A stretch of 64,000 nucleotides of DNA from an uncultured Prevotellaceae bacterium (GTDB lineage Bacteria > Bacteroidota > Bacteroidia > Bacteroidales > Bacteroidaceae): assembly GCA_963769405.1 (NCBI GenBank), contig CAVYLQ010000009.1, positions 161,905-225,904 of the forward strand. The letters are read 5' to 3'. A program made the position numbers and the translations under genes. This document shows, in pieces, positions 3,233 to 46,843 of the stretch; the stretch's first letter is position 1, and the number at the start of each line of letters is the position of its first letter. Below the pieces are notes generated by a model. That model saw only the letters and a list, made by a program, of their open reading frames with translations. It did no database searches and was not told the origin of the DNA.

Positions 3233-3243
3233 AAGCAACACAT

Positions 3244-9345: not shown

Positions 9346-9363
9346 AATCTCAAATCAAGGATA

Positions 9364-10728: not shown

Positions 10729-10956
10729 ATTAACATTAAATTAAAATACTCTCGAGATATATAATATTCTATTTAATTAACAAAAAATACCCCGCCATTT
10801 TATTGCAAAGGTACATAACTTTTCACAAACTTATACATATCTTTTAGGTATTCAAAAAGAAACACTGCTTTTTCTCATACAAAGGAAGTTAAAAATTTCC
10901 AGTATTTGGCATATTCGCTTATTTTTAGTATTTTTGTCGAAAATAAAAGAGATGCC

Positions 10957-11832: not shown

Positions 11833-12094
11833 AATATTCACAAGCAACAGTAACGCATAGAACGGGACTGAAATGATAACCAAGAAATGCCGATCTCGAA
11901 AAACCCACATTTTTTAGTTTAGAATTTATTCCAGACGAGAAAATATATACCCTTAATAATTGTCTGTTTTTTATGAAAATCCATTTTCTATCTCAAATTT
12001 TTATGCTTTAAAATCAAATAGTAGAGTTATTTCATATCTATTCAGTTTACCTTTGTAAACTAAACAATACTAAACCATACTAAACCAAAAACCG

Positions 12095-13573: not shown

Positions 13574-13606
13574 TTATCATCCTATCCATCACTTTTCATC
13601 GTTGAT

Positions 13607-13658
13607 CAGGATCAGATATCAAATCTGATAAAAGAAATCAGATTTGATGTCGATCCTG
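13607..13658. other. Long intercistronic stem-loop between rhaB and rhaA
   Basis: CAGGATC-A-GATATCAAATCTGAT / ATCAGATTTGATGTC-GATCCTG; about 22-bp stem, only a short U tract after it. Confidence 0.7.
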
Positions 13659-13716
13659 CTCTTTGGAAATCATAAAAATAAATACATTAATAACTAAAAA
13701 ATAAAACTAAACGATT

Positions 13717-14970: not shown

Positions 14971-16007
14971 TGGAAATTATCTTTGGATTACTGATCATAG
15001 CAATCGGCGCATTCTGCCAGTCAAGTAGCTATGTACCCATCAACAAAATCAAGAACTGGAGTTGGGAAAGCTACTGGCTCGTGCAGGGTGTCTTCGCGTG
15101 GCTCATCCTACCCTTTCTGGGAGCGTTGCTGGCTATACCTGAAGGACAGTCTCTGCTAGGGCTTTTTACAACTACCGATTCCTTCCATCTATGGATGACG
15201 ATTCTCTTCGGTGTTCTCTGGGGTGTCGGAGGTTTAACTTTCGGTCTCTCCATGCGCTATTTAGGGGTAGCTTTGGGACAGTCTATCGCTCTGGGAACTT
15301 GTGCAGGATTAGGAACGATCATGGGGCCGGTACTGCTCAACATCTTTTTCCCAGAACTCAACGCACTGAGTTCGCTGACCTTTGCAGTTATTTTCGGTGT
15401 TATCGTAACTCTTGTCGGTATTGCTATTATCGGTATCGCCGGTAAAATGAAAGCCAACAGTCTTCTCAAAAAAGATGATCAAGCAACTGTCAAGGACTTC
15501 AACTTCCCTAAAGGAATTACTATTGCTCTCCTTTCCGGTTTCATGAGCGGGTGTTTCAACGTAGGACTTGAATTCGGTAAAGACATCAACTTTGGCGATC
15601 TGACCAATCCGATGTTCAAGACACTGCCGGCAACATTTCTCGTTACGTTAGGTGGTTTCGTCACCAATGCCCTCTACTGCTTCTATCAGAATCAGAAGAA
15701 TCATACATGGAGTGATTATAAAAAGGGGAATGTATGGGGTAATAATGTCCTTTTCTGTGCCCTCGCAGGTACTCTCTGGTATAGTCAGTTCTTTGGTCTT
15801 TCACTAGGAAAAGGGTTCCTGACCTCTTCTCCTACATTGATGACACTGGCATTCTGTATTCTGATGTCCCTCAACGTGGTATTCTCCAATGTCTGGGGTA
15901 TTATCCTGAAAGAATGGAAAGGCTGTTCCAGAAAGACGATTACCGTCTTGGTACTTGGCATTATCATATTGGTTATTTCCTGCTTTGTACCTCAATTACT
16001 GAAATAA
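14970..16007 (+). CDS. rhaT: L-rhamnose/H+ symporter
   Basis: WSWESYW, LWGVGGLTFGLSMRYLG, GIILKEWKG; ATG overlaps the rhaA stop. Confidence 0.93.
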   Translation: MEIIFGLLIIAIGAFCQSSSYVPINKIKNWSWESYWLVQGVFAWLILPFLGALLAIPEGQSLLGLFTTTDSFHLWMTILFGVLWGVGGLTFGLSMRYLGVALGQSIALGTCAGLGTIMGPVLLNIFFPELNALSSLTFAVIFGVIVTLVGIAIIGIAGKMKANSLLKKDDQATVKDFNFPKGITIALLSGFMSGCFNVGLEFGKDINFGDLTNPMFKTLPATFLVTLGGFVTNALYCFYQNQKNHTWSDYKKGNVWGNNVLFCALAGTLWYSQFFGLSLGKGFLTSSPTLMTLAFCILMSLNVVFSNVWGIILKEWKGCSRKTITVLVLGIIILVISCFVPQLLK

Positions 16008-16025
16008 AAGACCATGTATTTATAG

Positions 16026-16112
16026 AAAACTCCCGGACACGGCAAGCGTTATGTCCGGGAGTTTTTTATGAGTTATAAAACCCGAATACAATCAAAGTTA
16101 TATTCGGGTTTT
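16026..16112. terminator. Two adjacent terminator hairpins between convergent rhaT and rhaD
   Basis: AAAACTCCCGGACA / TGTCCGGGAGTTTT (16026-16065) and AAAACCCGAATA / TATTCGGGTTTT (16077-16112). Confidence 0.8.
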
Positions 16113-16154
16113 CTATCAATCATTAGAAAAATATCTATCTTAAAGATATATCTC

Positions 16155-16967
16155 TTACTTAGGCAAATGGAAAGCTTTACTCATTTCCTTCATCTGATCA
16201 TCGCTCATCCCCTCAGGTTCAAAGCCCATGGATTTGCTATCCAGATAAATCTTGGCACTTTTGGAGAGTACATCAACCTGATCAAAAGCATCCAGAACAT
16301 CAACGCCCTTAGCAAAGACGCCATGCTTTTCCCATAGCACTACATCATAATCCTCCAGTTCCTTCAAGGTATTCTGAGCCAATTGTACGCTTCCAGGCAA
16401 CTGATAAGGTACGACACCAAGACCAAGCGGACAGAAAGCCTTTGTCTCAGGAATCATACTCCACAATAGATGAGTCAGGACATCTTTTTTCAAGAATGGC
16501 CTATGATGACTCATTGCTACCAATTCTATAGGATGTGTATGCATCGTAGCCTTATAATCAGAACCTTCTTCCACCAAGCGATTATGGACAGCAAGGTGAC
16601 TTGGAAGTTCACTGGTCGGCAATACCGGATGATCTGCAATAATTTCATAATGAGCACAATCGTCAAGGATACGGATCACGCTTCCGTTCTCCATTGGCCA
16701 CCGCGCCAGATCACGCATACGTTTTCCAGTACCTTTACAGAAGAAATAACAACCTTTCAAATAAGGAAGAGTTTCTCCAATGGATTTCACTTCATCAATG
16801 GCAGGCAGTTTTCTGATTTCATCATCTACCAGATCTGTAATATTAACCGTGATATTGCCACCATTACGTTCAGCCCAACCATTCTGCCAGAGATACCCAG
16901 CTACTTCTGCAACCTTATCTACCTCTTTCTTCAAGACTGGTCTGCCTTCCAAAATGCTCTTTGTCAT
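16155..16967 (-). CDS. rhaD: Rhamnulose-1-phosphate aldolase
   Basis: GWAERNGGNI, PTSELPSHL, MHTHPIEL, WSMIPET, LWEKHGVFA. Confidence 0.94.
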   Translation of the reverse strand: MTKSILEGRPVLKKEVDKVAEVAGYLWQNGWAERNGGNITVNITDLVDDEIRKLPAIDEVKSIGETLPYLKGCYFFCKGTGKRMRDLARWPMENGSVIRILDDCAHYEIIADHPVLPTSELPSHLAVHNRLVEEGSDYKATMHTHPIELVAMSHHRPFLKKDVLTHLLWSMIPETKAFCPLGLGVVPYQLPGSVQLAQNTLKELEDYDVVLWEKHGVFAKGVDVLDAFDQVDVLSKSAKIYLDSKSMGFEPEGMSDDQMKEMSKAFHLPK

Positions 16968-17212
16968 ATTATAAATATATTTTTAGTATTGGTTTAATTT
17001 GCAAAAATACTTGTTTTCTTTTATTATTAACCTTAGGATTTGATTTTTCAGCTTAAGGTTTTGAGATTTATCAAGTTCCTGTTTTCCTCTTTTCCATGAC
17101 ATCTTGATTGTTATTTTAGAACAATATATATGGATCATACCTATCGGAACATAGGGTATAAAACACTTTCTTATAAACATCAAGTAAACCCAATAATAAA
17201 TTTTCAAAGTAT

Positions 17213-17243
17213 TTTGGAAATTATCAAAATTGTTGTACCTTTG
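17213..17243 (+). promoter_or_regulatory. Bacteroidetes housekeeping promoter
   Basis: TTTG (17213-17216), 19-nt spacer, TACCTTTG (17236-17243); 5 nt before the ATG at 17249. Confidence 0.7.
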
Positions 17244-17248
17244 TCTAC

Positions 17249-17869
17249 ATGAATGACTTGAATCATAGCAACATCAAATGGACAGAGAATGTCATCATCG
17301 CCGATGCAGATTACATCGATAAAGTAGCCTTTAATCTTACTGTCAACTTTGAAAGAATGCTCAATCGAAAAATTCCTCAGGCTGACATCAGTCAGTGGGC
17401 AGTAGACATCGCTCTTGACGGGGGACTACGTGAAGGTGACCATGAAACCCAAATTGTCTTCATCCATGAACAAAGCCATTCGAAACTAGAGAACTTCAGA
17501 CCTTCTGTGTATGATAAAGAACTGAATGCACAAGCTTTTAAAGATCCGAAACTCGGTGAGTTTATATTGAGTTCTATTTCTACAGAAAGAACCATCTGCA
17601 AAGATGACTTGCTCATTGATATCGTTAATGAGGTCATCTCTCAGAAAGAAGTAAAACGGGTTATGGTTATTCCGGATGCAGAAGAAGGTGAACAGTACGA
17701 CAGAATACGCCAGACTCTCAGCTACCTGAATGATGATTCCAAGCGTATTACCGTCTTTGCCATGCAACCTATGCCGGGAGGAAATTTCCGACAGGAAATT
17801 CTGGGCTATTCCCTTATGAATGCTTTAGGCATACATGCTGATGAAATCAACCGTTCGAGTTTTCAATAG
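17249..17869 (+). CDS. Conserved Bacteroidales hypothetical protein (DUF6621-like)
   Basis: 206-aa ORF with its own promoter; VIIADADYID...NFERMLNR...GYSLMNALGI resembles a conserved Bacteroidales family. Confidence 0.65.
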   Translation: MNDLNHSNIKWTENVIIADADYIDKVAFNLTVNFERMLNRKIPQADISQWAVDIALDGGLREGDHETQIVFIHEQSHSKLENFRPSVYDKELNAQAFKDPKLGEFILSSISTERTICKDDLLIDIVNEVISQKEVKRVMVIPDAEEGEQYDRIRQTLSYLNDDSKRITVFAMQPMPGGNFRQEILGYSLMNALGIHADEINRSSFQ

Positions 17870-17988
17870 AGATACAAAAACAAGTAACAAATAAACAAGA
17901 CCAGCGTCAGCTAACAATGCTCCGCAAAGATCTATTTATTCATCAAATAAATATTCATTGATTGCAATACATTAATTCATAATAGACT

Positions 17989-19182
17989 ATGAGTAGAGTT
18001 CTATTACTGGGCGCAGGGGGCGTGGCCACTGTCTGTGCTTTCAAAATCAATAAAAACCAGGACGTTTTCACGGACTTTATGATTGCTTCACGCCATAAAG
18101 AGAAATGTGACCAACTGGTTCAGGCTATTGGTAATCCGAATATCAAAACAGCTCAGGTAGATGCTGATGATGTAGAAGCACTAAAAAAACTCTTCAAGAG
18201 TTTTCAACCTGACCTGGTCATCAATCTGGTTCTTCCTTATGAAGACCTGACCATTATGGACGCCTGCTTGGCCTGTGGATGTAACTACCTTGACACAGCC
18301 AATTATGAACCAAAAGATAAAGCTCACTTTGAATACAGTTGGCAATGGGCATACAAGGACCGCTTCAAGAAAGCAGGACTGACAGCAATCCTCGGATGTG
18401 GATTTGATCCGGGCGTTTCCGGTATTTATACTGCATACGCTGCAAAACATATCTTCGATGAGATTCAATACCTTGATATCGTCGACTGTAATGCTGGAAA
18501 TCATCATAAGGCATTCGCAACCAACTTTAATCCTGAAATCAACATTCGTGAGATTACTCAAAAAGGACTCTACTACGAGAATGGTAAATGGATTGAGACA
18601 CAGCCACTGGAAATTCATAAACCTCTCACCTACCCGAATATCGGACCAAAAGAGAGTTACCTGATGCACCACGAAGAACTCGAAAGTCTGGTAAAAAATT
18701 ATCCGACAATAAAACGTGCCCGCTTCTGGATGACCTTTGGTCAGGAATATCTCACTCATCTTCAGGTAATTCAAGACATTGGCATGGCAAGTATCAAACC
18801 TATCAACTATAATGGTCAGATGATCGTTCCCCTACAGTTCCTGAAGGCAGTTCTTCCTAACCCACAGGATCTTGGTGCTCACTACACAGGAGAAACTAGT
18901 ATCGGCTGTCGCATCCGCGGACTAAAAGACGATAAAGAACATACCTATTATATCTATAATAACTGCAAGCACCAGGATGCTTATCAAGAGACAGGAATGC
19001 AAGGTGTCAGTTATACGACGGGAGTTCCGGCTATGATCGGTGCAATGATGTTTTTCAAAGGCATTTGGAAGAAACCAGGTGTTTGGAATGTAGAGGACTT
19101 TGATCCGGATCCCTTTATGGAACAACTCAATAAACAAGGACTGCCTTGGCATGAAATCATCGATAGAGACTTGGAGGTATAA
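17989..19182 (+). CDS. Saccharopine dehydrogenase family protein, probable carboxy(nor)spermidine dehydrogenase
   Basis: Rossmann LGAGGV, YLDTANYE, GCGFDPG, DCNAG, FATNFNPEINIREI, VSYTTGVPA. Confidence 0.88.
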   Translation: MSRVLLLGAGGVATVCAFKINKNQDVFTDFMIASRHKEKCDQLVQAIGNPNIKTAQVDADDVEALKKLFKSFQPDLVINLVLPYEDLTIMDACLACGCNYLDTANYEPKDKAHFEYSWQWAYKDRFKKAGLTAILGCGFDPGVSGIYTAYAAKHIFDEIQYLDIVDCNAGNHHKAFATNFNPEINIREITQKGLYYENGKWIETQPLEIHKPLTYPNIGPKESYLMHHEELESLVKNYPTIKRARFWMTFGQEYLTHLQVIQDIGMASIKPINYNGQMIVPLQFLKAVLPNPQDLGAHYTGETSIGCRIRGLKDDKEHTYYIYNNCKHQDAYQETGMQGVSYTTGVPAMIGAMMFFKGIWKKPGVWNVEDFDPDPFMEQLNKQGLPWHEIIDRDLEV

Positions 19183-33157: not shown

Positions 33158-36100
33158 TTAGTTTTTTGGCGGTTCTATAGGGAATGCCATTTCCTGTTTC
33201 GGCTTTTTGAAATAACATTCAATATTCTCTACAATAAGTGCTCTCGGCGAAATAATCGTCGAACCTATACGACCTATAATTGTGTTCTGAACATTTTCTT
33301 CTTTTGACATCGCTATAATATGCAACAAGTCACCCTTGCTTAGAGTCGGAATTTCTTTTACCCTTACCAGTTTTTCCTCACCTGTGACAGCATTAACTCG
33401 ATACAAACAGGGGGTAAGTCCCGAAGGCTGACGTACTATATATGTAACTTTCAATCCCTTTTCTTTTGCTTCCTTGCAAAGTATCTGCTTCATCTTATCA
33501 AATGGTTTATCTGCGTCGCCATACATTCTCAGAATGCCCGGAGCTACTCCTGTACCTATCGTTTCAGGGTCATCAAAGAATCGGTCATTACCAGTGCTTT
33601 GCAAGCAGTTGAGCGCTGGATACCTGCCACAGATTAGCTGCTTAACAAATCCTCCACTCAATAGACTCAATGTTTTAGCAGGTACAACACCGTCGGCATC
33701 GCAACTGAAATTTCCTATCAGTCTCATCGAGTTGAATACCGGCATATCTGTCAGTTGGTCGATGTTGAGGTGTTTGTCAAAAATCCTCTTGCCTACTAAC
33801 AGGCTGGAGGTACCACTATTATCCTGAACCGTTCTCTTGACTGTGAGCAAAGGCACAATGAGGTTGCTTACGGTGTTGCTTATCATATCGTCTTCGTACA
33901 TGATTGGACCTACGTAATAGTCGTTCAGAGCTTCAGACTGATGTAACTTAACCAAACGGTCGGCAAACTTCTTTACCAAGTCAATCAACTTGTCGGAATC
34001 AAGTTCCTTGTCAGAACATACGATACGATCGATATGGTCTGAAATCTCTGAACCATCTGGTGTACGTACACTGGCGTATGCAGTAAGTTCTACAAAACCG
34101 TGTAAACTCTTCTGCTTGATATTCTCGGACGTCTCACGATAGTTTACTGTATTCTTGCTCAATATATTTACACTAGTATTGTAAAGGTCCGGGTACTTGG
34201 CGAATATAGCCGACAGGCGCTTACCAAGGCCTTGCAGATAAGAATACGAAATCGTATCCTGGCTATCCTGCTGTATGTATACACTAGGCTTCATAGTGAG
34301 CATGTCGGGTATGCCAACCTCTTCTTCCGGCATAGGATTGTTAGCCAGAAAATTCATCTTGTTTGACATCACGCCCAAACTATATTTGTACATATAATCA
34401 GAAGCCTTCCACAACTCTCTGCGTATATTATTATAGTCTACCGTGTTAGTACAAGATATAGGACAAACCTGCCCCGATTGCATATCACTTAAGCGTAGTG
34501 AATCACCCACAGCTATATTTACACTTCCTCGTGTTACTATAGGATAATGTTCAGACAATAATAACCCACCTAGTGACGAAGAAATGTATGCCTGACTGAC
34601 ACGGGCTATATTATAGTTGACATAGCAAGGCATGGGATAACCTGGATAAGAGATATTCACATTGCGTTTCATCTCATCGTCCATAGCTTTGAAAATAATA
34701 TTATCCTCATTCCTGTCAGTGGCGCTAGAAACCTCAGGAGCCGGAAGAATGGTAGGCTTCTGCAAATCCAACTGTCTCCGTTGTGTCTCAATTTTTGAGA
34801 CATAAATCATTGGTGAACTTGCTGTTACCGGTACCCAACCAGACTCTGCCCCACATTCGCCTGTGAATGTACTAGTCTGATTACCGGCCGCCGAAATGTT
34901 AGAGAACATTGAAAGTGGTGTACCGATCAAATCGACTCCACGAACCAACTGGTCAGGACGTCCGTCTACAAACACGCGATAAACCTCAAGTGGCGTGACA
35001 TTGAAAGAATTGAGGGTTCCGTTCTCTCCTGTAAGAGTAAAGCCGCTGGTAACGGTCCTAAAATAATATCCGTAAGCCTTACCTTGCTTACGAGCCTCTT
35101 TTACAAGCATCGCACGGAGTTCAGCCTCTGTATATGGCTTTGTTGTTTCTACTATCAAGTTAGACTGACGAGAAACAGGGTCATTGCCACCCTGAGTTCT
35201 ACCATGACCATTGCTATGAGGGAAACCGTCGATAGGTACACGACTCATCAAGAAGTTTCTCAATATACCATGTTCAACACAGGTTACCCTTTGGGCCTTA
35301 ACGCCTTCATCATCATACTTATAATATCCGTTAAGATCAGAATTACCATAATGAGTAAGAGTTGGGTCGGAATAGACATTGAAAGTAACAGGCAGGACAC
35401 GTTCGCCAACCATTTTTTTGAAAGTCTGTCCACCTTTTTTCAGACGGTGACCTTCAAGTCTATGTCCGAAAATCTCATGAAAGAATACCCCGCTGGCAGG
35501 ACCCGACAGAATAGCCGGGCCAGTGTATGGGTCGGCTACAGGCGCAACCTTCAATGCCAAAAGGCGCTGAATCATGGCCTTGGCATCGTCTATCATTTTT
35601 TCTTGAGAAGGCAGTTTGTTAATATCGTAAGCGAAATAATCCCAATGCAGAGGACACGACATTCCGTCCAGGGCTTTAACCGATGCAGATACGAGTATAC
35701 GTACAGCTTTACGGTTTTGTACCACGATAGTACCATCTGTATTTACGAGATAGTTTCTGTCTATCTCAAAAGCCATATCGGCCTTACCAGTCTCTATATC
35801 CTTACAGCCAAGAAATACACGAGTAACAGCATTAAGCCTGTCTTTCCAGGTATCAATATCTATCTTATACGCACTCTGCGGTAGCGGCTGCTCATAATAA
35901 GTTTCCCGTGGAGCATCCGAGAAGCAAGGGGCCTTATCCTCATCAGCAGTGCTGGTGAGGGCCTCAGACTTAGCCTGATCATAATTACTCTTGGCTATCT
36001 GATAACGCCTCAGAACTTCCTTCCATATAGCCTGCCTCATACCAGGTATGACCATGCCATCGATAGGGACTGCTACACCTTTACCATCACGTTGCTTGCT

Positions 36101-36418
36101 TCCGCTACCTTGATTCTGATATTTAAAATTGTCGAGTTCTTTTGAACCCAATCTGATTTGCGGTGTCAGCATTCGCTCATGATTTCTATCAACGGATGTA
36201 GCGCCTAGATTGCTCGAAATGACAGTTTTGGTAATATCTGCCAATCTGAAGCTCATGAAATATGGCGGATTGGTCTCTTTTTGCAGTTGCGACATATCGT
36301 ATTTCAGTTCACTCTTCATAGTGCTGACCAACGAGTCTTTCTCCAATGTCTGAGCACTCAATGTAAAGACACTCAAACATGAGAAAACAACTGATATTGA
36401 TATTCTGTTAAATCTCAT
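33158..36418 (-). CDS. Exported tandem TldD-TldE(PmbA)-like metalloprotease, single chain
   Basis: 1086 aa with Sec signal. Module 1 has HExxxH (FFHEIFGHRLEGH), DDEGV, GHGR and SRQSNL. Module 2 repeats the architecture (KAMDDEMKRN..., DADGV, GNDR) without HExxxH. Confidence 0.82.
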   Translation of the reverse strand: MRFNRISISVVFSCLSVFTLSAQTLEKDSLVSTMKSELKYDMSQLQKETNPPYFMSFRLADITKTVISSNLGATSVDRNHERMLTPQIRLGSKELDNFKYQNQGSGSKQRDGKGVAVPIDGMVIPGMRQAIWKEVLRRYQIAKSNYDQAKSEALTSTADEDKAPCFSDAPRETYYEQPLPQSAYKIDIDTWKDRLNAVTRVFLGCKDIETGKADMAFEIDRNYLVNTDGTIVVQNRKAVRILVSASVKALDGMSCPLHWDYFAYDINKLPSQEKMIDDAKAMIQRLLALKVAPVADPYTGPAILSGPASGVFFHEIFGHRLEGHRLKKGGQTFKKMVGERVLPVTFNVYSDPTLTHYGNSDLNGYYKYDDEGVKAQRVTCVEHGILRNFLMSRVPIDGFPHSNGHGRTQGGNDPVSRQSNLIVETTKPYTEAELRAMLVKEARKQGKAYGYYFRTVTSGFTLTGENGTLNSFNVTPLEVYRVFVDGRPDQLVRGVDLIGTPLSMFSNISAAGNQTSTFTGECGAESGWVPVTASSPMIYVSKIETQRRQLDLQKPTILPAPEVSSATDRNEDNIIFKAMDDEMKRNVNISYPGYPMPCYVNYNIARVSQAYISSSLGGLLLSEHYPIVTRGSVNIAVGDSLRLSDMQSGQVCPISCTNTVDYNNIRRELWKASDYMYKYSLGVMSNKMNFLANNPMPEEEVGIPDMLTMKPSVYIQQDSQDTISYSYLQGLGKRLSAIFAKYPDLYNTSVNILSKNTVNYRETSENIKQKSLHGFVELTAYASVRTPDGSEISDHIDRIVCSDKELDSDKLIDLVKKFADRLVKLHQSEALNDYYVGPIMYEDDMISNTVSNLIVPLLTVKRTVQDNSGTSSLLVGKRIFDKHLNIDQLTDMPVFNSMRLIGNFSCDADGVVPAKTLSLLSGGFVKQLICGRYPALNCLQSTGNDRFFDDPETIGTGVAPGILRMYGDADKPFDKMKQILCKEAKEKGLKVTYIVRQPSGLTPCLYRVNAVTGEEKLVRVKEIPTLSKGDLLHIIAMSKEENVQNTIIGRIGSTIISPRALIVENIECYFKKPKQEMAFPIEPPKN

Positions 36419-37498
36419 TATTTCTGATTTATTAAAGAATTGATAGCCTCTTGCTTTGACTTAGACTCGTAAGTCGATGTGTCGGCACATTTCTTAAGAT
36501 AATTCATAACCTTCTTCTGCTGAGCAGTGTTCATCTTCTTATACTTACTTAAAAGTATGCTTTCAAGAATACCCTTGAAGGCATCATTACTAGGAAGGTA
36601 TCTTACCGTTTGCTCATAGAATCTTATCATCGTATCGTAATCTTTCTCCATCACATAGAGTGCTATTCGGGGAAGATACGACTCGGCATCGTCAACAGGC
36701 AGTTCAAGCATAGCTGTTATAAAAGCTGCCTTTCTTACATCGTCCAATGTATAATTGATTGGACGTTCATCGGCCACCAAATACATTGGCTTACGATAAG
36801 TATCAAAAATCATCTGGTTAACGACCTCACGACCAAGATACTTATCCATCTTGTACTTGTCGAGCATAAGATGGTCAAAACGTGGAGATCTGAAATCAGT
36901 AGTAGCGAAAACGAGTTCAAGGTATTCGCGTGAATAACGCTGCGACTCCCACGGATTTTTGTACATCTCGTCGAGTGTAGGAGTCGGGTCTTGTCCGTGG
37001 TCTATCTGTGCTTTAGCCAATTTCATACCGTTATCGTAATTTGGTTCCTTATCAAAGGCCTCTTTCAGGGCAATAACCGAATTATCCGGCTTTACGGCTT
37101 CTACCATGCGAGCTACAGAAATGTTGCGGCATCGAGCGAACCACCTGTAAGACGATTTATTTCTTTACCGTCAGCATCCATGATTATAAATGTAGGATAA
37201 GACTGTACCATGTATTTCTTAACAGTTGTACGCCTTCACCTTTCTCCATATCCACTTGTATGCATACAAACTTACCATTGAAGTAATCACCACATTCTTT
37301 TTGCGGGAATATCTCATGAGCCATTCTTGCACATGGTACGCACCAAGACGTATAACAGTCCATGAATAGCATTTTATTTTCTTTCCTGGCTTTAGCCAAG
37401 GCTTCCTTGAAGCTTACTCCCTTGACAAAGTCCACTCCTTGAGCAGAAGCACCAATTGCCGTAAGAATAAGCATCAGTATAACAAGAGTTTTTTTCAT
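36418..37498 (-). pseudogene. Exported thioredoxin-domain protein with helical C-domain, split by two frameshifts
   Basis: 37498-37184 gives signal + DCYTSWCVPC. A frameshift near 37222 continues KKYMVQSYPTFIIMDADGKEINRLTGGSLDAATF. A second near 37118 joins VARMVEAVKP (ORF 37107-36418). Confidence 0.8.
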
Positions 37499-37511: not shown

Positions 37512-38873
37512 TTATTTTTTTAATTCAGCCTCCAACAACTGTTTCAGAGCAGGATCAGAAGGACGTGGAGCATTGGTATTTACAGTTTTTCCAGTCTTAG
37601 AGAATACCATAAACCTTGGTATCTCAGTAATCTGATAATCACTTACCAACGGCCCCTTTCTATACGAAATCAACTGTACGCCGCCCATATTCTTGTCCTT
37701 AAGCATCTTTTTCCATGCAGCACGATCCGTATCAAAAGAAGCGCCTATGAATACAATATTCTTATGAGCAAATTCTTTTTCAAGCTCCAGCAAGTAAGGA
37801 ATCTCTTTCTTGCAAGGAGGACACCATGTAGCCCATACGTCAACAAGAACGACCTTTCCCTTGAAATCAGAAAGTTTTCTCTTTTTGCCATTCGCATCCT
37901 CGTAGGCAAAATCTATCCAGGGATTTCCGGCTTTGTTTACCATGTATTTTCTTAACAGGTCTGCTCTGCGCACTTTCTGCTTCGGTGTTACGAAACTGCT
38001 AGCATAACGTTTACAAACTACATCTGCGCTATCAAGCAAATTTCTCTCCATAGCCGACAGGATAACTTCGCCACGCAATTCTGGACATGTGATGTACTTC
38101 AACTCCCAAGGAAGTGTAGGACCCATGATGAAATTGTAAATAAAAGTTTTGGCAAAAGCATAATTCAACATCAAGTCGAAAGGTTGTGGAGAATAATGCC
38201 ATACATCCATACTGTTGTATACATCCTTACTCAAATAATCCTGAATATACTGTGGATAATCCTGATGTCTAGGCCATTCTATACCATTCATGAACACCGA
38301 AGTGATATCATACTGCAAAAGGAAAGGCATGGCCTTCTTCATGTAAGCATCGAATGACACATTACCTGTATTGATACCGGATATCAACTGCTGAGCAAGA
38401 GTTGTAACACTGTCGATTACAACATGATAACGCTGAGGGGTTGCCTTGCGGCCTGCCAGAGAATAATCTAAAGTTCTAAGAGGAGAAAGGATTTCGAACC
38501 ATCTTGCGATAAGCTCATTCTCTTTACCGATTTTGCCGCTGAATTTAATATTTCCTCCTTCTACATTTATATTGATCGAATCTTTATCACCTAGATACAC
38601 AGGATAAAACTCACCATCAGCACCTATATAAGAAACTTTGTTCAACAATCCGGTTTCAGAACCTATATTCAGACTGAATGATTTATCATAGCTTCTCAAA
38701 GCCGATCCAGCTTTTTCTTCCAGTTTGCCATTTATATTCCGGCAGATAACAATGGACGTACTCCTTTGATTATCAATGATAATCTTGTTGAACACACCTC
38801 CTATATGAGCTGTCTGAGCTCCGCAGGTTGTGGTTGCCACTAACATGGCTAAAGATAAAATACTTTTTCTCAT
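37512..38873 (-). CDS. TlpA/ResA-like thiol-disulfide oxidoreductase
   Basis: Signal peptide; C-terminal LSDFKGKVVLVDVWATWCPPC...YQITEIPRF...APRPS. Confidence 0.88.
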   Translation of the reverse strand: MRKSILSLAMLVATTTCGAQTAHIGGVFNKIIIDNQRSTSIVICRNINGKLEEKAGSALRSYDKSFSLNIGSETGLLNKVSYIGADGEFYPVYLGDKDSININVEGGNIKFSGKIGKENELIARWFEILSPLRTLDYSLAGRKATPQRYHVVIDSVTTLAQQLISGINTGNVSFDAYMKKAMPFLLQYDITSVFMNGIEWPRHQDYPQYIQDYLSKDVYNSMDVWHYSPQPFDLMLNYAFAKTFIYNFIMGPTLPWELKYITCPELRGEVILSAMERNLLDSADVVCKRYASSFVTPKQKVRRADLLRKYMVNKAGNPWIDFAYEDANGKKRKLSDFKGKVVLVDVWATWCPPCKKEIPYLLELEKEFAHKNIVFIGASFDTDRAAWKKMLKDKNMGGVQLISYRKGPLVSDYQITEIPRFMVFSKTGKTVNTNAPRPSDPALKQLLEAELKK

Positions 38874-39821: not shown

Positions 39822-41420
39822 TTATTTGATTATACTACGATTATTACGCATTAGGTTTGTAATAGAACCACGGTTAAACTCGATAGTAGCGTTAGGTACC
39901 GGGACCACCCATGCGCCCTGATCTTTGTTATACGACTGGAGTACATAATATCCGGTAAGGAAGTTTACATTCGAATTAGCATCATACGTATAAGCCGGGT
40001 GCTTGATAGTGAAATCGGCAGACAAAGGGAATTTACTGTTTACAGAATAACGGCGCAAGTCGAACCAGCGATGACCCTCAAAACATAATTCAAGACGACG
40101 CTCTGTTCTGATAAAATTGACCAGTTGCTTCTGGTCTGTCGGAATATCATTCAATTGAGCTCCGGTTATTCTGTTAGCCCTCAAATTCTGTAATGTAGTG
40201 CGTGCGTCATCAATTTTGCCCATCATGGCAAGAGCTTCAGCCTTATTGAGCACGACCTCGGCATACCTGATACAGAATATATCCGAAACGAGTTCAGGAT
40301 CATTATAAGTCCGCCAAGTCTTATACTTATTAGGCAACGGAGCATGATTTACAGACGATTCTTTGAAGAATACTTTTCGGCGCAAATCGTTAGAGTTGTA
40401 TTTCTCGATCAGGTCGTTAGAAGCCTTAAAACAGCTAGCCCTATCGTTATCCCCATTCCATGCCGAAACAGAGTCGTTGATAAATACCGCTGCTGTAATA
40501 TTGCCACCTACTGTAAAAATAACTTCTTTAGAAGATCTGCCAAGGAAATTTGGGCTATTACCAAATGTTCGTAAATCTGTAAGAGAATAACTAAGATCGT
40601 TGAATGCATTCGAGGCGTCTATTACATCCTGATATTTCTCCATGTATAAAGCTACCCGACTCTGAAGAGCTTTGACAGCACCAATACCTACACGCAGTTT
40701 CGAATCAGGCGTATAATTGCCAATATTCTGTTCTGCTGACTTAAGGTCGGCCCAAATCTGATTATAGACCTTCTCATTGGTAGAACGTGTAAAATACTTA
40801 TCCTCTACATTTGGAGATGTCTTTAATGGCACACTGAAGTCTTGCGCAGCTGAAGCTGGAGAATAAGGCAATCCATAAACATTAGCCAGATAGAAGTAGT
40901 ATAAGGCACGCAAGAAATAAGCCTCGCCACATATATGATCAAGGAGGACCTCTTCTTTGGGATTCTTACCTTTTAAATTTTCTCCCTGATAGATAATAGA
41001 GTTAATGACACCTATGCAGGCATATAGTTTAGTCCATTGTGTATCATTCCATTGCTGAGACTGCACATTAGAGCATGGATTGGTACTCCAGTTGGCCATA
41101 GCGCTCAACATATAATAAGGTGTGCCCTGGTCGGGAGTGACATAATCTTGCAAGAAAGCCTCGGCATCATCATCCATAAGCTGAAGCCATGGAAAATGCA
41201 TACTATTATTATCTGCTGATGCCAAGAATGTTTTATCCATTGTTACCTGATTAGAAATAGAGGGTTGATAAACACCAAGAAAACCCTGTCCTACCATTAG
41301 TAAATTAAGATCGTTGGCGGTTTCGCAATAACGTTGGTCAGTAGAATACTCATCAAGAAAACCACTACATGAAATGAAGAGTATTGAAAATAAAAAGACA
41401 CATATTAATAACTTTTTCAT
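39822..41420 (-). CDS. SusD/RagB family lipoprotein
   Basis: Lipobox FIS-C; GEAYFLRALYYFYLANVYG; RYAEVVLNKAEALA; ERRLELCFEGHRWFDLRR. Confidence 0.93.
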   Translation of the reverse strand: MKKLLICVFLFSILFISCSGFLDEYSTDQRYCETANDLNLLMVGQGFLGVYQPSISNQVTMDKTFLASADNNSMHFPWLQLMDDDAEAFLQDYVTPDQGTPYYMLSAMANWSTNPCSNVQSQQWNDTQWTKLYACIGVINSIIYQGENLKGKNPKEEVLLDHICGEAYFLRALYYFYLANVYGLPYSPASAAQDFSVPLKTSPNVEDKYFTRSTNEKVYNQIWADLKSAEQNIGNYTPDSKLRVGIGAVKALQSRVALYMEKYQDVIDASNAFNDLSYSLTDLRTFGNSPNFLGRSSKEVIFTVGGNITAAVFINDSVSAWNGDNDRASCFKASNDLIEKYNSNDLRRKVFFKESSVNHAPLPNKYKTWRTYNDPELVSDIFCIRYAEVVLNKAEALAMMGKIDDARTTLQNLRANRITGAQLNDIPTDQKQLVNFIRTERRLELCFEGHRWFDLRRYSVNSKFPLSADFTIKHPAYTYDANSNVNFLTGYYVLQSYNKDQGAWVVPVPNATIEFNRGSITNLMRNNRSIIK

Positions 41421-41434
41421 ACTATACTATTCCT

Positions 41435-44400
41435 TTATATCACGAAGTTAATGTTAAATGTAAAAGTAGGACGTATAGAAAGGTTGATCTGTGGAGACGA
41501 ACCATTCTGAGTAGGGTCCTGACCCTTTAATTTGCTACTGCAAATTGTGAAGAGGTTGTTACACACCAGGCTCACATAAAGAGACTGCAATCCCATCTTT
41601 CTTACCAGTTTTTCTTCCACATTATATCTGAAAGCAAGTGACTGTAATTTGAGATAATTGCCACTGACAACTCTGATATTAGAATTGTCGTACATATCAT
41701 ATATTGATCCTGCAAATCTGTATGCACTGGCGGAATAATCTTGCCACCATGGAGTATTAAGAGTACTGCTTGCTACAAGACCTGGAATATTAGTATATGC
41801 CTCATCTCCAGGTTTACGCCAACGGTAGATAAATTCTTTACGCAAGTTCTGCTGAGGATAAATCACACTAGAAGCATAGCCTGAACAAATTTTCAACAGA
41901 CGTATCTTATTACCCAAAGAATATGTAAAATTAAAAGACAAACCGAAGTTGCCGTATCCTAAATAGTTGTTTACACTACCCTGTATATAAGGTTCACGCT
42001 GACCAGATTCTTCCATAACTTGCATAAACACCTCATCGGGAGTCATATTGGCATATTTAGCCATAAGAGCAGCCTTGTTAGCATCTTCTGCTCCGTAGAA
42101 GATAGGTGAACCGTCTTTAGGACTTAATCCCTCAAACTTATAAGAATAGAATGTACTTATAGGTTTATTAGACAACTCTACATTACCTGTAAGATAGTCG
42201 TTGTAAGTAACCACATCATGCATTGTATGTGTCTTATTGTTGATGGCACGGTTGATGACCTTATTCAACACCTCACCAATCTGAGGATCAATACGCCATA
42301 CAAATCCGCGTTTACCTCCGCCAATGTTAGCATTATTGATAGGAGTAAAACTCAAAGAGATCTCAACACCCTGGTTGTTTAAAGAACCACCATTCACCAC
42401 ATATTGGTTGATACCATTAATATCCGAAATGGTCTTTGTCAAGAAAGCATCTTTTGTATGCTTGTAGAAATAAGAGAATGTACCACGTATCTTATTATCA
42501 AGAAGGATAAAGTCAAGACCAACATTATAAGATGAAGTCTTTTCCCATTTCAAATTCGGGTTAGGATATCGATATATTGTGGCATAATTAGAATTATATA
42601 TTGGGTCGGTAAGCGTAGATTGCTGGATAATCATCTTAGCTGTCTGTCCAGGCAACATGTTTCCTTGCCATCCCCAAGAAGCTCTCAAGGAAGCATCATC
42701 AACCCATTTGGTATTCTTTAGAATATTTTTCTTCATATTCCATCGTCCAGAAACAGCCCAGATAGGAGAGAACTTCTCATTGGCTCGTGAACCGAAAAGA
42801 TTAGATCGTTCAGCACGTAGATGCAGATTGAATATATAGATGTCTTTAAAACCATAACCGGCTGTAGCATACCATGCCAGTTCATTAGTCAATTGACGTG
42901 TTCTATAACCCAAAGCTTCTTTACTACTCATAAACTGTGAATAATATCCACTATCATCTGTTGGTACCGCATCAAAATAACCTCCGAACTCTGTAAAATA
43001 ACCACGACGTGTAATATCAAAACCTTTATATTCGGTAGATTTAGCTTCAATACCCGCAGAAGATGTGATAAGATAATTACCTTTACTACCAAGAGTTTTC
43101 ATAAAGTTGGCTTGCAGACGTACTGTATAGTCGTCATTCTTAGTATCCTGACGTTTCAACTCTCCACCTACAGGACACTGGTCCCAACGAGGAGTCTGAT
43201 CACCTCTTAAATTATATATATAATATGTATCTTTAGTATAATATTGTTCACGAGTTGTATTAGAGATATTATATGCCAGAAGTGCATCGATATTCAGACA
43301 AGACAGAATACCGTATCTAATCTGCGAATGCATGCTGATGCCATTAGTTTCAGAACCATCACCAGAATTGGCCATCTCGTTTAGGATATTAAATTCATAA
43401 CGCTGACCAGTTGTATTAACTTTAGGATAATAGAATAATGATCCATCAGAATTATAAGCAGGCATGGCTCTGCTGGTATTATAAGCGTAATCCATTACCC
43501 CAAGTTCTTGAGGAGAGTATTTACGCTTAGAATAGTTGGCTTGCAACTGGAACTGTGCATTAAATTTTCTATACGTTGCTGTCAAGTTGAGCATACTGGA
43601 ATAACGCTCATTTTTCTCTTGTTTGATAACTCCATTTTCTATACCATACCCAAGTGAAGCATAATATTTTATATTAGGAGAACCACCAGAAAGGCTCACT
43701 GTATGATTGTGTGAAAAAGAATTGTGTGTAAGCAATCCTAACCAATCAGTATTGACAGAACGATAATAGTCTGACTCCTTTTTAAAATCTGAATAATTCA
43801 ACTTTCCACTATAATAATCCTGAACAGCTTGTTCATAGCCAGACCACTGAGTCACATTATTATAATACATCTTTCGGTCTATAAGTTCCTGACTGACGTC
43901 AGTACGCTCTGCCGAGTTCATCATATATACATCACGGTCAGAATACCTAGGCCGGCTAGTATAGGTAAAGTTACCATTATAACTAATAGAGGGCTTGCCT
44001 ACGGTACCCTTCTTTGTCGTAATCACAATAACACCATTACCGGCTTTTGCGCCGTAAAGAGCCGTGGCTGAAGCATCTTTTAAGACATCAATCTGCTGAA
44101 TATCATTCGGATTCAATCCCGATATAGCATTACCCAAAAGATTAACGAAGTCCGGATCATTAATCTGTTGAGGATCAACGTTTACAGGGTCAGAAAGAAC
44201 TATGCCATCAAGTACCCACAACGGTTCGCGGTTACCAAGAATAGTTGATGTACCACGCACACGGAGACTAGGAGATGCTCCAACCTGACCTGAATTCTGC
44301 GTGAATATCATACCTGGTACTTTACCTTCAAGCATCTGATCAATGGTTGTCATTCCGGGGTTATTGATATCCTCCATTTTAAGAGTTGTAACTGCCGAAG

Positions 44401-45037
44401 TTAGTTTTGAGCGGTCAATGGTCTGATATCCTGTTATGACCACATCATCTACAGGCTTTATATCTTCTTCCAGCATAACATTGATAATAGGACTATTGCA
44501 GACAATAATTTTAGTTTTCATACCGATAAAACTAAACTTCAAAGCATCCTCCTCATGTACACTGATACGATAATTACCATCAGCATTAGTTATGACACTC
44601 TGCTTCCCACCTACTATACTGATGTTTACACCTGGAAGAGCTTCCTTGTTTGTATCAGTTACATGACCATAAACCAAAACTTCTTTCTTCTGTAACATTA
44701 TCCTGCGAATTACTGCGGTATGCCCTTGCCATACAACTTCAAGCCCCATTGGTCTATATAATCTTTCCAAGAAAGAACTTACCGTCTCATTTCGTGCAGA
44801 TATTGAGGCCTTCTTATTCCGAAGAAGTGCTGTGTTGTATATATAACTAATACCTGTTTTCCCCTGTACATTCTCCATAATAGAGGTAACCTTTGTATTT
44901 TTAAAGTTACATGTTATTCTCTCATTCTGTGCCAACACAAACTGTAACGAGCAACATAACATACCTAAAGACATAATAAGTTTTTTCCTTCTCAGCAGCC
45001 TATAGAGAAGCCCTAAACGTATTGATTTCTTCTTCAT
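41435..45037 (-). CDS. SusC/RagA family TonB-dependent transporter with N-terminal STN extension
   Basis: GNREPLWVLDG; IDVLKDASATALYGAKAGNGVIVITTKKG; NPNLKWEKTSSYNVGLD; SGNYLKLQSL; terminal FNINFVI. Confidence 0.95.
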   Translation of the reverse strand: MKKKSIRLGLLYRLLRRKKLIMSLGMLCCSLQFVLAQNERITCNFKNTKVTSIMENVQGKTGISYIYNTALLRNKKASISARNETVSSFLERLYRPMGLEVVWQGHTAVIRRIMLQKKEVLVYGHVTDTNKEALPGVNISIVGGKQSVITNADGNYRISVHEEDALKFSFIGMKTKIIVCNSPIINVMLEEDIKPVDDVVITGYQTIDRSKLTSAVTTLKMEDINNPGMTTIDQMLEGKVPGMIFTQNSGQVGASPSLRVRGTSTILGNREPLWVLDGIVLSDPVNVDPQQINDPDFVNLLGNAISGLNPNDIQQIDVLKDASATALYGAKAGNGVIVITTKKGTVGKPSISYNGNFTYTSRPRYSDRDVYMMNSAERTDVSQELIDRKMYYNNVTQWSGYEQAVQDYYSGKLNYSDFKKESDYYRSVNTDWLGLLTHNSFSHNHTVSLSGGSPNIKYYASLGYGIENGVIKQEKNERYSSMLNLTATYRKFNAQFQLQANYSKRKYSPQELGVMDYAYNTSRAMPAYNSDGSLFYYPKVNTTGQRYEFNILNEMANSGDGSETNGISMHSQIRYGILSCLNIDALLAYNISNTTREQYYTKDTYYIYNLRGDQTPRWDQCPVGGELKRQDTKNDDYTVRLQANFMKTLGSKGNYLITSSAGIEAKSTEYKGFDITRRGYFTEFGGYFDAVPTDDSGYYSQFMSSKEALGYRTRQLTNELAWYATAGYGFKDIYIFNLHLRAERSNLFGSRANEKFSPIWAVSGRWNMKKNILKNTKWVDDASLRASWGWQGNMLPGQTAKMIIQQSTLTDPIYNSNYATIYRYPNPNLKWEKTSSYNVGLDFILLDNKIRGTFSYFYKHTKDAFLTKTISDINGINQYVVNGGSLNNQGVEISLSFTPINNANIGGGKRGFVWRIDPQIGEVLNKVINRAINNKTHTMHDVVTYNDYLTGNVELSNKPISTFYSYKFEGLSPKDGSPIFYGAEDANKAALMAKYANMTPDEVFMQVMEESGQREPYIQGSVNNYLGYGNFGLSFNFTYSLGNKIRLLKICSGYASSVIYPQQNLRKEFIYRWRKPGDEAYTNIPGLVASSTLNTPWWQDYSASAYRFAGSIYDMYDNSNIRVVSGNYLKLQSLAFRYNVEEKLVRKMGLQSLYVSLVCNNLFTICSSKLKGQDPTQNGSSPQINLSIRPTFTFNINFVI

Positions 45038-45097
45038 CTAGTAATAATTGTTAAAAAATTAATCTCTCTTAATTAAGTTATTATATTATTTATTCGT

Positions 45098-46201
45098 TCA
45101 TTTTATTATAATGGTCTTGTTGTGTATTTCATATTCAAACTCTTGAGTAAGCCCTATTACCTTCATGAAGTCTCCTACTGATTCTGTACGCTTGCACTCA
45201 CCTGTGAATCTTATATCACGTACATCTTTTTGATATACTACTTTTACATCATAAATTCTTTCTATATCGTCCATTATATCACAAAGACTGTCATCAGTAA
45301 AATAAATAAAACCATCTTTCCAGGCCGCTGTCTGTTTATTGTATATTTGGTTGACGCTTATCTGATTACCTGATTTCACAATCTGTTCGCCAGGCGACAA
45401 CTCTACTTTACGTCCATTATTTTCATAACGAACCTTACCTGTATAAAGTGCAATGCTTGCCTTATCACCACTATAAGCACATACATTAAATGTAGTACCC
45501 AGTACATTAACAGCTCCTGCAGGACATGTAACTTTAAAAGGACGTCCGTCTTTCTTCACTTCAAAGTAAGCCTCTCCTCTTAAATAAACTTCTCTTGTAG
45601 AAGTGAAATGATTGGGAAATCTCAAGGTAGAACCTGAATTAAGACTTACCATACTGCCATCAGGAAGTGATACTTGATATTGGCGCCCACAAGGAATAAC
45701 AAGTTCTAACATCTCTACCGGAACATTGTCTCCATCATCATTGAGAGCAATAGAACTTTGTCCCACAGTTGCACTCAAACCAGCCTTAGTCAAATTTTGG
45801 CCGGCTTTAGAAAGAACAACAACCTTGCCATTAGCTAATCTTATCATAGGTAATGAATCAGATAGTGCAGGGATTTTCTTTTTCAACATCGCAACAACTT
45901 CAGGGCTTTGCTGTTGTCTTGTATAATGAGGATGAAATAAGAAAAAGGTTATCAATAACATTGCTGCTACTGCCCCAACAGTAGCAAACTTCCAATAGGA
46001 ATTGTTTTTGAAAGAATGCACTTTACTTAAAAACTGATTATAAGCAACATCTGTATTAACTTCCAAATAAGCATGAATACGATCAGAGACTTTCTTACTA
46101 TTGTAAAAGGCTCTCACCGCTTTCAACTTATCATCACTTTGCGGTTCATCCTTCTCAATGGATTCAACAGCTTTAAAGAAGTCATCTTTTAATTCTTTCA
46201 T
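45098..46201 (-). CDS. FecR family anti-sigma factor
   Basis: TM, then LPDGSMVSLNSGSTL, VYLRGEAYFEV, VLGTTFNV, AWKDG, IERIYDV. Confidence 0.92.
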   Translation of the reverse strand: MKELKDDFFKAVESIEKDEPQSDDKLKAVRAFYNSKKVSDRIHAYLEVNTDVAYNQFLSKVHSFKNNSYWKFATVGAVAAMLLITFFLFHPHYTRQQQSPEVVAMLKKKIPALSDSLPMIRLANGKVVVLSKAGQNLTKAGLSATVGQSSIALNDDGDNVPVEMLELVIPCGRQYQVSLPDGSMVSLNSGSTLRFPNHFTSTREVYLRGEAYFEVKKDGRPFKVTCPAGAVNVLGTTFNVCAYSGDKASIALYTGKVRYENNGRKVELSPGEQIVKSGNQISVNQIYNKQTAAWKDGFIYFTDDSLCDIMDDIERIYDVKVVYQKDVRDIRFTGECKRTESVGDFMKVIGLTQEFEYEIHNKTIIIK

Positions 46202-46309
46202 ACTTTCACTCTTTTAATGTTATTATGCAAAAAACAAAAAAAGTATTACTGAAAATAGGAAAAAGATGACAAAAAAGTGTTTCTATAGTCGAAACAATAA
46301 CATTATGAT

Positions 46310-46843
46310 CTAAAGAAAGAATAAAATTGGGTTATCTTTTGTAGCTTTTCTAAGGGAATCCATGGCTTTTGCCTTTACAGCTTTTACTGTATTTACACTA
46401 ATATTCAACATTTCGGCTATTTCTTTGCCACTCTTACCATCTATAGAAAGAAGCATTATTTGTCGTCTTCTCTCTGGAAGCTTTTGTATTTCTTCATATA
46501 GACGTCTAACAAGTTCTTCCTTAACTGTCTCTGAAAAACTATCATCAGTCAACTGCAGATCCATATTATCTGTTATCTCGACATGTTCACGGGTTTTTCG
46601 AAGATGATACAAGGAATTATTATATATAGCTTTATAAAGATAATAAGTAAGGTGTTTTTGAGAATCAAATTTATAGTCACTAACCCAAAGGTTAAGAAGT
46701 GTTTCTTGTACTATATCTTTGGCTAATTCCAAATCATGCAGATAGTTCGTTGCATAACAACATAAAGGCGCATAATATACATCAAAAAGAACTTCCCAAT
46801 TCTTTTCGTCACGCGCATTTATTTTCTCTATTACCAAAGCCAT
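46310..46843 (-). CDS. ECF sigma-70 factor (Bacteroides expansion type)
   Basis: YYAPLCCYA, AKDIVQETLLNLW, LPERRRQI, KEIAEMLNISVNTVK. Confidence 0.92.
   Translation of the reverse strand: MALVIEKINARDEKNWEVLFDVYYAPLCCYATNYLHDLELAKDIVQETLLNLWVSDYKFDSQKHLTYYLYKAIYNNSLYHLRKTREHVEITDNMDLQLTDDSFSETVKEELVRRLYEEIQKLPERRRQIMLLSIDGKSGKEIAEMLNISVNTVKAVKAKAMDSLRKATKDNPILFFL

Follow-up and report, generated by a model that had tools for sequence, protein, structure and literature searches.

To our knowledge, all characterised examples of the TldD/TldE peptidases are cytoplasmic. These proteins are found in most bacteria and archaea, and their physiological role has been called elusive (PMC5810440). In Escherichia coli TldD the metal ligands are His262, His267 and Cys454, with Glu263 as the catalytic base; the active site is not sequence-specific, and the TldD/E enzyme has been likened to a 'pencil sharpener' (PMC5810440). 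Here we describe a relative from an uncultured Prevotellaceae bacterium, encoded within a window of 64,000 nucleotides (the whole stretch of DNA that we analysed: contig CAVYLQ010000009.1 of assembly GCA_963769405.1, positions 161,905 to 225,904). The gene occupies positions 33158–36418 of the window on the minus strand, as one uninterrupted open reading frame (ORF) of 1086 codons. Its product is, we are confident, an exported, active, single-chain peptidase of the TldD/E type. As an overall account of the locus, we think it rather probable that this enzyme works in a pathway in which substrates are imported, reduced and then shredded.

A TldD-like half with a predicted metal site

The sole family that Pfam assigned to the full-length protein was PF19289, the PmbA/TldD C-terminal domain (aa 301–544, E 3e-34). 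An earlier note on this DNA, which had been made by a model from the sequence and a list of its ORFs, had expected hidden Markov models to recover two sets of PmbA_TldD domains; this did not happen, as Pfam gave PF19289 in the N-terminal half (N half) only. A phmmer search of PDB sequences likewise returned a single match, E. coli TldD (5NJ5 chain A, E 9e-16, aa 215–542). In this alignment, FFHEIFGHRLEG stands opposite LLHEAVGHGLEG, and GECGAESGWVPV stands opposite GVCGKEGQSLPV: H314, E315 and H319 of a HEIFGH motif lie opposite E. coli TldD H262, E263 and H267, and Cys522 lies opposite Cys454 (query 'gecgaesgwvpv', 5NJ5_A 'gvcgkegqslpv'). We predict that these four residues form the active site, because they are aligned with the metal ligands and the catalytic base of E. 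coli TldD. All four are invariant across 50 non-redundant homologues, as is the entire run from C522 through G527. The suggestion, made beforehand, that GECGAESGWVP contains the equivalent of the zinc-ligating Cys of E. coli TldD was therefore correct. Constraint is uneven along the chain: there are 156 invariant columns in the catalytic half versus 30 in the C-terminal half (C half), as expected for a pair of one active and one inactive module.

The resemblance to canonical TldD is distant. Against the two NCBIfam TldD equivalogs (NF008006 and NF040952) the protein scores 86 bits where the cut-off is 635, and 49.3 bits where it is 513. The full-length protein is no orthologue of either canonical TldD or PmbA, but a member of a separate, exported branch.

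The second half resembles TldE

The two halves of the protein are homologous to one another, as the earlier note had proposed. BLASTP of one against the other produced one collinear alignment (452 aa, 19% identity, E 5e-5), and hhalign of the C-half family profile against the N-half profile gave a probability of 100% (E 7e-40, 484 columns). The latter comparison places HEIFGH of the N half opposite VSNLIV in the C half, in which it finds neither an HExxxH nor a counterpart of the cysteine ligand. The chain has just one HExxxH, at aa 314–319 in the first module, where it had been reported. What the C half is emerged only from profile-profile and fold comparisons, and not from searches with sequence alone: by itself (514 aa) it had no match in Pfam, NCBIfam (including NF008268, PmbA) or PDB sequences by phmmer, and even a profile that includes free-standing homologues (the gene-2 proteins described below) matches PmbA 1VL4 only at E 0.02.

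An AlphaFold2 model of the full chain, based on a 50-sequence alignment, has a predicted local distance difference test (pLDDT) score of 88.4 and a predicted template-modelling (pTM) score of 0.82, with secondary-structure elements in the same order in both halves. When this model was compared with the PDB by Foldseek, there were 16 significant chains, all of them TldD or TldE/PmbA (next match, E 0.03); the top chains are E. coli TldD (E 4e-26, TM (target) 0.74–0.77). Because the full-chain Foldseek table is silent as to which half was aligned, we also folded the C half separately (pLDDT 92.6, pTM 0.89). Its top eight matches are all TldE/PmbA (including 6J6A, 1VL4, 5NJ5_B and 3QTD; E 6e-23 to 2.5e-19; TM 0.66–0.73), with TldD chains ranking after them at about 1e-18 (significant range to 2e-17) and the next match at E 0.02. 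The earlier note had set the fold of the second half as the point on which its reading would stand or fall, and here it stands: the C-half model matches TldE/PmbA and TldD structures only.

These data support the core of the earlier reading, namely that one chain carries, behind a predicted export signal, a TldD-like module that is catalytic and a TldE-like one that is not. The linker that had been postulated between the modules was located at aa 554–572; it reads KPTILPAPEVSSATDRNED, is hydrophilic, and forms a coil in the AlphaFold2 model. The pTM of the 1086-residue model suggests that the halves hold a defined arrangement, and they are probably packed against each other as a closed shell, like the TldD/TldE heterodimer.

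A predicted type I export signal

The Sec-type signal that the earlier note had claimed is present in the translation as MRFNRISISVVFSCLSVFTLSA followed by Q: a pair of basic residues leads into a hydrophobic core of 14 residues, and LSA precedes the Gln. A hydrophobic core followed by Ala, Gly or Ser and then Gln recurs, at a median position of 22, in 98 of the 99 homologues that have complete N-termini. An N-terminal Gln after cleavage by signal peptidase I is the 'Q-rule' of Bacteroidetes, as stated in the available part of PMC5837995. No other segment that resembles a transmembrane helix was found among the 19-residue windows of the protein. We considered, and rejected, a lipoprotein with a lipobox at Cys14: this residue is not conserved, so that the signal is read as type I, and the site shared by the family is Ala, Gly or Ser before Gln. 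A C-terminal sorting domain, for the type IX secretion system or another route, was also rejected: the TldE-like fold extends almost to the C-terminus, and the model has no extra domain. The protein is most likely soluble in the periplasm.

Fusion within an exported branch

A word-indexed search returned more than 1600 full-length homologues (about 1090 aa). Identity to fused homologues is 90% in Xylanibacter oryzae, whose intact orthologue is WP_084608511.1, compared with 48% in Butyricimonas. In databases they bear no more specific name than 'metallopeptidase TldD-related protein' or 'predicted Zn-dependent protease'. The distribution of the fused family is patchy. There is no second PF19289 match in the window's genome, which thus lacks a canonical TldD/PmbA. 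Across the order and the phylum, strong matches mostly cover the N half only, and an adjoining second gene matches the C half. In these split pairs, gene 1 encodes a protein of 553–622 aa with a signal peptide and HEIFGH, and the product of gene 2 likewise starts with a signal peptide but lacks HExxxH. Many pairs have overlapping stop and start codons; some are divided by one in-frame stop.

The junctions of 18 split pairs are informative as to how the single chain arose. The mature start of the gene-2 proteins, ...EIFKAMxDELxRN..., is the motif that comes right after the linker of the window's protein: the C half begins exactly at the mature start of the free-standing proteins. Moreover, the tails of the gene-1 proteins (...IETQKK..KSQ..KP.ILP.P) match ETQRRQLDLQKPTILPAP in the window's protein. 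From these two matches we conclude that the fusion retained the gene-1 tail as a linker and deleted exactly the gene-2 signal peptide. The KPTILPAP of the linker is the kept C-terminal tail of the ancestral gene 1, and the other 10 or so residues stand in place of the gene-2 signal peptide. The single chain originated from an older exported two-gene system, in which gene 2 lost its signal peptide and became attached to gene 1 at the C-terminal tail of the latter.

Phylogeny is consistent with this origin. We built a maximum-likelihood tree of catalytic modules, with gene-2 paralogues as its root. The window's fused family, of which 16 members were sampled, forms a single clade there (100/100) that is nested among split pairs. 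A separate fused gene, at locus L031, is sister to a split pair from a genome assigned to the same genus (99/98). Because the fused clade is nested within split pairs, and L031 lies elsewhere, fusion has occurred at least twice. An exhaustive HMMER search with the C half only gave 1184 clusters at 50% identity, 743 of them at E <= 1e-10. We examined the best 150 of the 1184 for fusion, HExxxH and a signal. They include 31 fused proteins, of which 30 have HExxxH in the first half and all 31 have a signal-like N-terminus, and 101 free-standing gene-2 proteins, which all lack HExxxH; 91 of these 101 have an N-terminus that resembles a signal. Since signal peptides are present on both genes of split pairs and on free-standing gene-2 proteins, export predates the fusion. 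The earlier note had supposed that the heterodimer was fused and moved to the periplasm; the joined catalytic and non-catalytic modules and their export signal bear this out, but the order is the reverse, export first and fusion second. Exported TldD/E proteins thus constitute a large branch of their own.

The possibility that the window's protein is either not exported or not active, through a mis-called start or a membrane anchor that would leave a cytoplasmic or membrane-tethered enzyme, or as an inactive shell, is in our opinion very improbable. Its localisation is deduced from sequence only, and inactive fused relatives exist (the one representative in 31 that lacks HExxxH). However, the leader is kept in all but one of the 99 homologues, together with its cleavage-site pattern and a conserved mature start, the free-standing gene-2 proteins bear their own leaders, and every catalytic residue is invariant in the window's family.

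Two further observations concern variation among fused members. P0257 (1090 aa) has no HExxxH in its first half, and could be a single-chain 'pseudoprotease' that has no activity. In the cluster of P0001, several 90%-identical members from Prevotella metagenome-assembled genomes are only 399–403 aa long, although their contigs are long (as much as 3.17 Mb); truncation or a frameshift may affect the gene in some strains.

An operon with SusC, SusD and two redoxins

The TldD/E gene is the last of eight in a minus-strand operon that runs from 46843 to 33158 (Table 1): genes for an extracytoplasmic function (ECF) sigma factor, a FecR-type anti-sigma factor, SusC, SusD, a lipoprotein, a TlpA/ResA-like oxidoreductase and a Thioredoxin_7/DsbH-like protein precede it, and the stop codon of the last of these overlaps the TldD/E start (TAATG). 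SusC has an N-terminal extension that is STN-like but weak (E 2e-4, 21.6 bits, below cut-off). The lipoprotein matched no family in Pfam or NCBIfam, and the TlpA/ResA-like oxidoreductase combines a C-terminal thioredoxin fold with an N-terminal domain that has no assigned family. Adjacent SusC and SusD genes, with ECF sigma and anti-sigma factors on the same strand (39822–46843), have the arrangement of a Sus-like uptake locus. A strict polysaccharide utilisation locus would also contain carbohydrate-active enzymes, and there is no Pfam match to a glycoside hydrolase or lyase among the genes of the operon. In a scan for promoters and terminators, counts were near the shuffled expectation, with a sigma-70 consensus that does not suit Bacteroidota.

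Table 1. Features of the gene and its operon (positions in the window)
Feature	Position	Strand	Basis or remark
Whole gene: predicted exported single-chain TldD-TldE-like metallopeptidase, 1086 aa	33158..36418	minus	ORF list and translation; stop codon 33158–33160
Predicted type I signal peptide, aa 1–22 (MRFNR, hydrophobic core, LSA before Q)	36353..36418	minus	Family conservation
TldD-like catalytic half, aa 23–553	34760..36352	minus	PF19289, phmmer to 5NJ5_A, Foldseek, invariant columns
HEIFGH metal-binding and catalytic motif, aa 314–319 (H314, E315, H319)	35462..35479	minus	Alignment and conservation
GECGAESGWVP, aa 520–530; Cys522 is the predicted third zinc ligand	34829..34861	minus	Alignment to 5NJ5_A and conservation
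Linker, aa 554–572 (about 19 aa)	34703..34759	minus	Junction comparison with 18 split pairs
TldE/PmbA-like non-catalytic half, aa 573–1086	33161..34702	minus	hhalign, AlphaFold2, Foldseek, gene-2 mature start
ECF sigma factor	46310..46843	minus	Pfam Sigma70_r2/r4_2
FecR-type anti-sigma factor	45098..46201	minus	Pfam PF04773, PF16344
SusC-type TonB-dependent transporter, 1200 aa	41435..45037	minus	Pfam Plug, CarboxypepD_reg
SusD/RagB-family outer-membrane lipoprotein	39822..41420	minus	Pfam PF07980, PF14322
Lipoprotein, 308 aa in orthologue; lipobox ...LWAC, then acidic residues	38883..39810	minus	Frameshifted near 39045
TlpA/ResA-like thiol-disulfide oxidoreductase, 453 aa, predicted exported	37512..38873	minus	Pfam Redoxin/AhpC-TSA/Thioredoxin_8; NCBIfam ResA/TlpA
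Thioredoxin_7/DsbH-like protein with helical C-terminal domain	36418..37498	minus	Pfam on 104-aa ORF; three-frame reading

An orthologous locus with 90% identity, L023, has the same eight genes in the same order, all of them intact. In the window, the lipoprotein gene is split by a 1-nt insertion into overlapping ORFs of 256 and 112 aa, and the Thioredoxin_7 gene is read as ORFs of 104 and 229 aa: compared with the intact 359-aa orthologue in L023, one nucleotide is missing near 37219 and two are inserted near 37124. These frameshifts in the Thioredoxin_7 gene signify either a pseudogene or an assembly error.

We hypothesize that the operon specifies a sequence of import, reduction and shredding; taken on its own, we would rate this pathway slightly below an even chance. 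SusCD would take up peptides or small proteins, and the two periplasmic thiol-disulfide oxidoreductases would reduce their disulfides, thereby unfolding them; a DsbD-type membrane electron transporter is encoded in the window's genome and could supply electrons to such reductases. The TldD/E chain, delivered to the periplasm by its Sec/signal-peptidase-I leader, would then shred the unfolded substrates to short peptides. Its TldD-like half (HEIFGH plus Cys522, with zinc or iron as the metal) and its inactive TldE-like half would close into a shell with the active site in the interior, so that only unfolded peptide ends could thread in, to be cleaved processively. Substrates would presumably differ from those of the known TldD/E enzymes. 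We propose the steps in this order because an enzyme that accepts only unfolded chains would sit in the periplasm beside reductases and behind a SusCD importer.

Some of the same gene contents could be read as a system of peptide maturation or defence, which would either trim the leader of an exported ribosomal peptide or bacteriocin, or else destroy an antimicrobial peptide that is rich in disulfides and has been imported. What the family is known for is leader removal, from microcin B17 (PMC5810440) and, according to the accessible part of the source, by BipI in biphenomycin maturation (PMC12707348); the available text of PMC11467351 has Bacteroides SusCD transporters importing bacteriocin-like proteins, and reductases would disarm peptides that are stabilised by disulfides. 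However, neither the window's operon nor the related loci that we examined contain a gene for a precursor peptide, a modification enzyme, an exporter or immunity, and we view this alternative as decidedly unlikely.

Reductases and SusCD beside relatives of the gene

The gene neighbourhoods of relatives provide a further perspective on the proposed import-reduce-shred sequence. In a recurring theme, fused genes have beside them SusC (with STN) and SusD, along with surface lipoproteins that carry DUF4959/DUF4998 or DUF4843/PKD_2 and either one redoxin of the TlpA type or two (DUF4369 plus AhpC-TSA); this theme is found at Butyricimonas-type and other fused loci. Both of the split pairs that are closest to the fused clade have a SusC/FecR/sigma/TlpA context. 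About 6 of 19 fused loci, and both of the split sister loci, have a TlpA-like gene no more than 10 kb away, and the density of such genes in the window's genome is about 0.06 per 20 kb: TlpA-like neighbours are an enrichment and not a rule.

The strongest link between reductase and protease is a Rosetta-stone protein. P0066 (1235 aa) is a triple fusion in which a signal peptide is followed by a thioredoxin domain of the TlpA type (WCSPC), to which the mature TldD-TldE sequence is attached with nothing in between; at least 11 members of its 16-member cluster have the full length. Upstream of it lie a gene homologous to that for the window's Thioredoxin_7 protein, one for a small lipoprotein, and a fragment of SusD. 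This arrangement would also suit redoxins, neighbouring or fused, that serve the enzyme and not its substrates: a thioredoxin domain that is fused directly to the protease could be a dedicated maturation factor, which keeps the ligand Cys522 and the conserved Cys165 reduced for assembly of the metal site, and a cysteine as third metal ligand is unusual for an exported enzyme. Against this explanation, most family members have no adjacent redoxin, the hosts are anaerobic, and loci with two different redoxins, SusCD and surface lipoproteins bear more resemblance to substrate processing. We hold it to be still less likely than a role in maturation or defence.

The contexts of other relatives are diverse, and we rejected the idea of a fixed functional partner at every locus: contexts differ, and many copies stand alone. 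Loci without SusCD and redoxins lie beside proB/proA/proC and ornithine carbamoyltransferase (OTCase), beside thrA, or among unrelated genes, and most of the distant split pairs are alone. The protease could instead be a general housekeeping enzyme of the envelope, clearing unfolded or mis-targeted periplasmic polypeptides, cleaved pro-peptides and debris independently of SusCD, with the operon link as a lineage-specific recruitment. Most fused and split loci, being alone or among genes for amino-acid biosynthesis or other housekeeping functions, would agree with this, as would the lack of sequence specificity in the characterised TldD/E active site (PMC5810440). A housekeeping role is nevertheless unlikely, in our view, given the patchy spread of the gene; furthermore, the enrichment of TlpA and SusCD neighbours and the TlpA-TldD-TldE fusion indicate a dedicated pathway in several lineages.

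Several points weigh against our preferred account of import, reduction and shredding. The SusCD/redoxin context is absent at nine fused loci of the window's own family, and likewise at most of the distant split pairs. The fused gene is present in only about 13 of 200 genomes of that family (about 6%), and in one of the ten other genomes of the genus. Two of the eight operon genes are disrupted while TldD/E is intact; unless these are assembly errors, the full pathway may be impaired in this organism. No candidate gene for a substrate was identified. The location and activity of the protein are read from sequence and models, and the shell-like packing of its halves from the single pTM value of 0.82.

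Some loci have features of interest in their own right. Locus L002, on a Butyricimonas-type contig, contains arrays of small (130–270 aa) secreted proteins and lipoproteins, at 3375–9600 and 14600–18626, that belong to at least two paralogous families; they lie on either side of the fused TldD/E gene and of two redoxins of the TlpA type, are unrelated to the neighbours in the window, and have no Pfam family. At L052 (G763:C6), positions 9212–16245 carry two tandem fused TldD-TldE genes, of 1096 and 1099 aa, set between genes for proline biosynthesis (proC, proB) and one for an ornithine/aspartate carbamoyltransferase; L025, in the same genus, has this pro/OTCase context too. At L029, on a JGI contig, a lone fused copy (2703–7584) is just downstream of genes for a CstA peptide transporter and a Peptidase_C69 dipeptidase, and these neighbours are anecdotal support for a role in peptide catabolism.

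Significance and comparison with known systems

The exported branch is an unstudied one, and large: the partner module by itself has matches in 1184 clusters at 50% identity. Within it, an obligate heterodimer has become a single chain at least twice. That subunits of a heterodimer should be fused is not surprising in itself, and the natural single-chain form suits structural and enzymatic work, since it offers one gene, a fixed stoichiometry and a secreted product. The links to SusCD and to disulfide reductases, including the covalent TlpA-TldD-TldE fusion, furnish a concrete and testable hypothesis for a cage protease in the envelope of gut Bacteroidales. A bolder extension, which we consider somewhat doubtful, is that exported TldD/E proteins are the proteolytic end of an undescribed Bacteroidota pathway, in which SusCD imports disulfide-stabilised peptides or small proteins (nutrient or hostile), DsbD-powered TlpA/thioredoxin reductases unfold them, and the cage digests them. 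If this were true, the long-enigmatic TldD/E family would gain a defined physiological role outside the cytoplasm. In a literature search that had subscription journals outside its scope, we found nothing on exported or fused TldD/E proteins or on this type of locus, and no described Sus-like locus with a TldD/E-type protease or with a pairing of such a protease and TlpA-like reductases.

RagAB is a peptide importer. The operon in the window resembles RagAB/SusCD peptide importers, and Sus-like loci that are free of carbohydrate-active enzymes, in that SusC and SusD are under an ECF sigma/anti-sigma pair with no glycoside hydrolase. The exported split pairs of Bacteroidota (e.g., L030, L045 and L046) are close relatives: they belong to the same exported branch and have the same motifs, mature N-termini and gene-1 tail, their gene 1 being 40–53% identical to the N half and their gene 2 being 24–36% identical to the C half. 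They consist of two polypeptides with two signal peptides, often translationally coupled, whereas in the window's protein the two are joined and the second signal has been deleted. BipI is also a TldD-family enzyme, and is described as 'self-sufficient', with no separate TldE partner gene, and with progressive, pencil-sharpener-like cleavage proposed (PMC12707348). Unlike the window's protein, it is a cytoplasmic maturase of ribosomally synthesised and post-translationally modified peptides, encoded in a Gram-positive biosynthetic gene cluster; the accessible part of that source does not describe it as exported or as a TldD-TldE fusion.

The last comparison is with E. coli TldD/TldE (PmbA; 5NJ5 series; Ghilarov et al. 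2017, PMC5810440). Both halves fold alike in the two systems (Foldseek E 4e-26 against TldD and 3e-20 against TldE), which also share the combination of one module with HExxxH and a Cys ligand and one inactive homologous module, and presumably the threading of unfolded peptides. By fold and active site, the window's protein is a member of the TldD/TldE superfamily (MEROPS M103). Yet the halves are no more than about 20% and 13% identical to their E. coli counterparts, each is about 50–65 residues longer in the window's protein, and Lys456 and Asp272 of E. coli TldD are replaced by Ala524 and His324. The E. coli proteins are two cytoplasmic chains encoded near lon; the window's protein is one chain with a Sec signal peptide, encoded in a SusCD/redoxin operon. 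What is new here, then, is a distinct exported branch that differs from canonical TldD/TldE in location, in chain number and in context.

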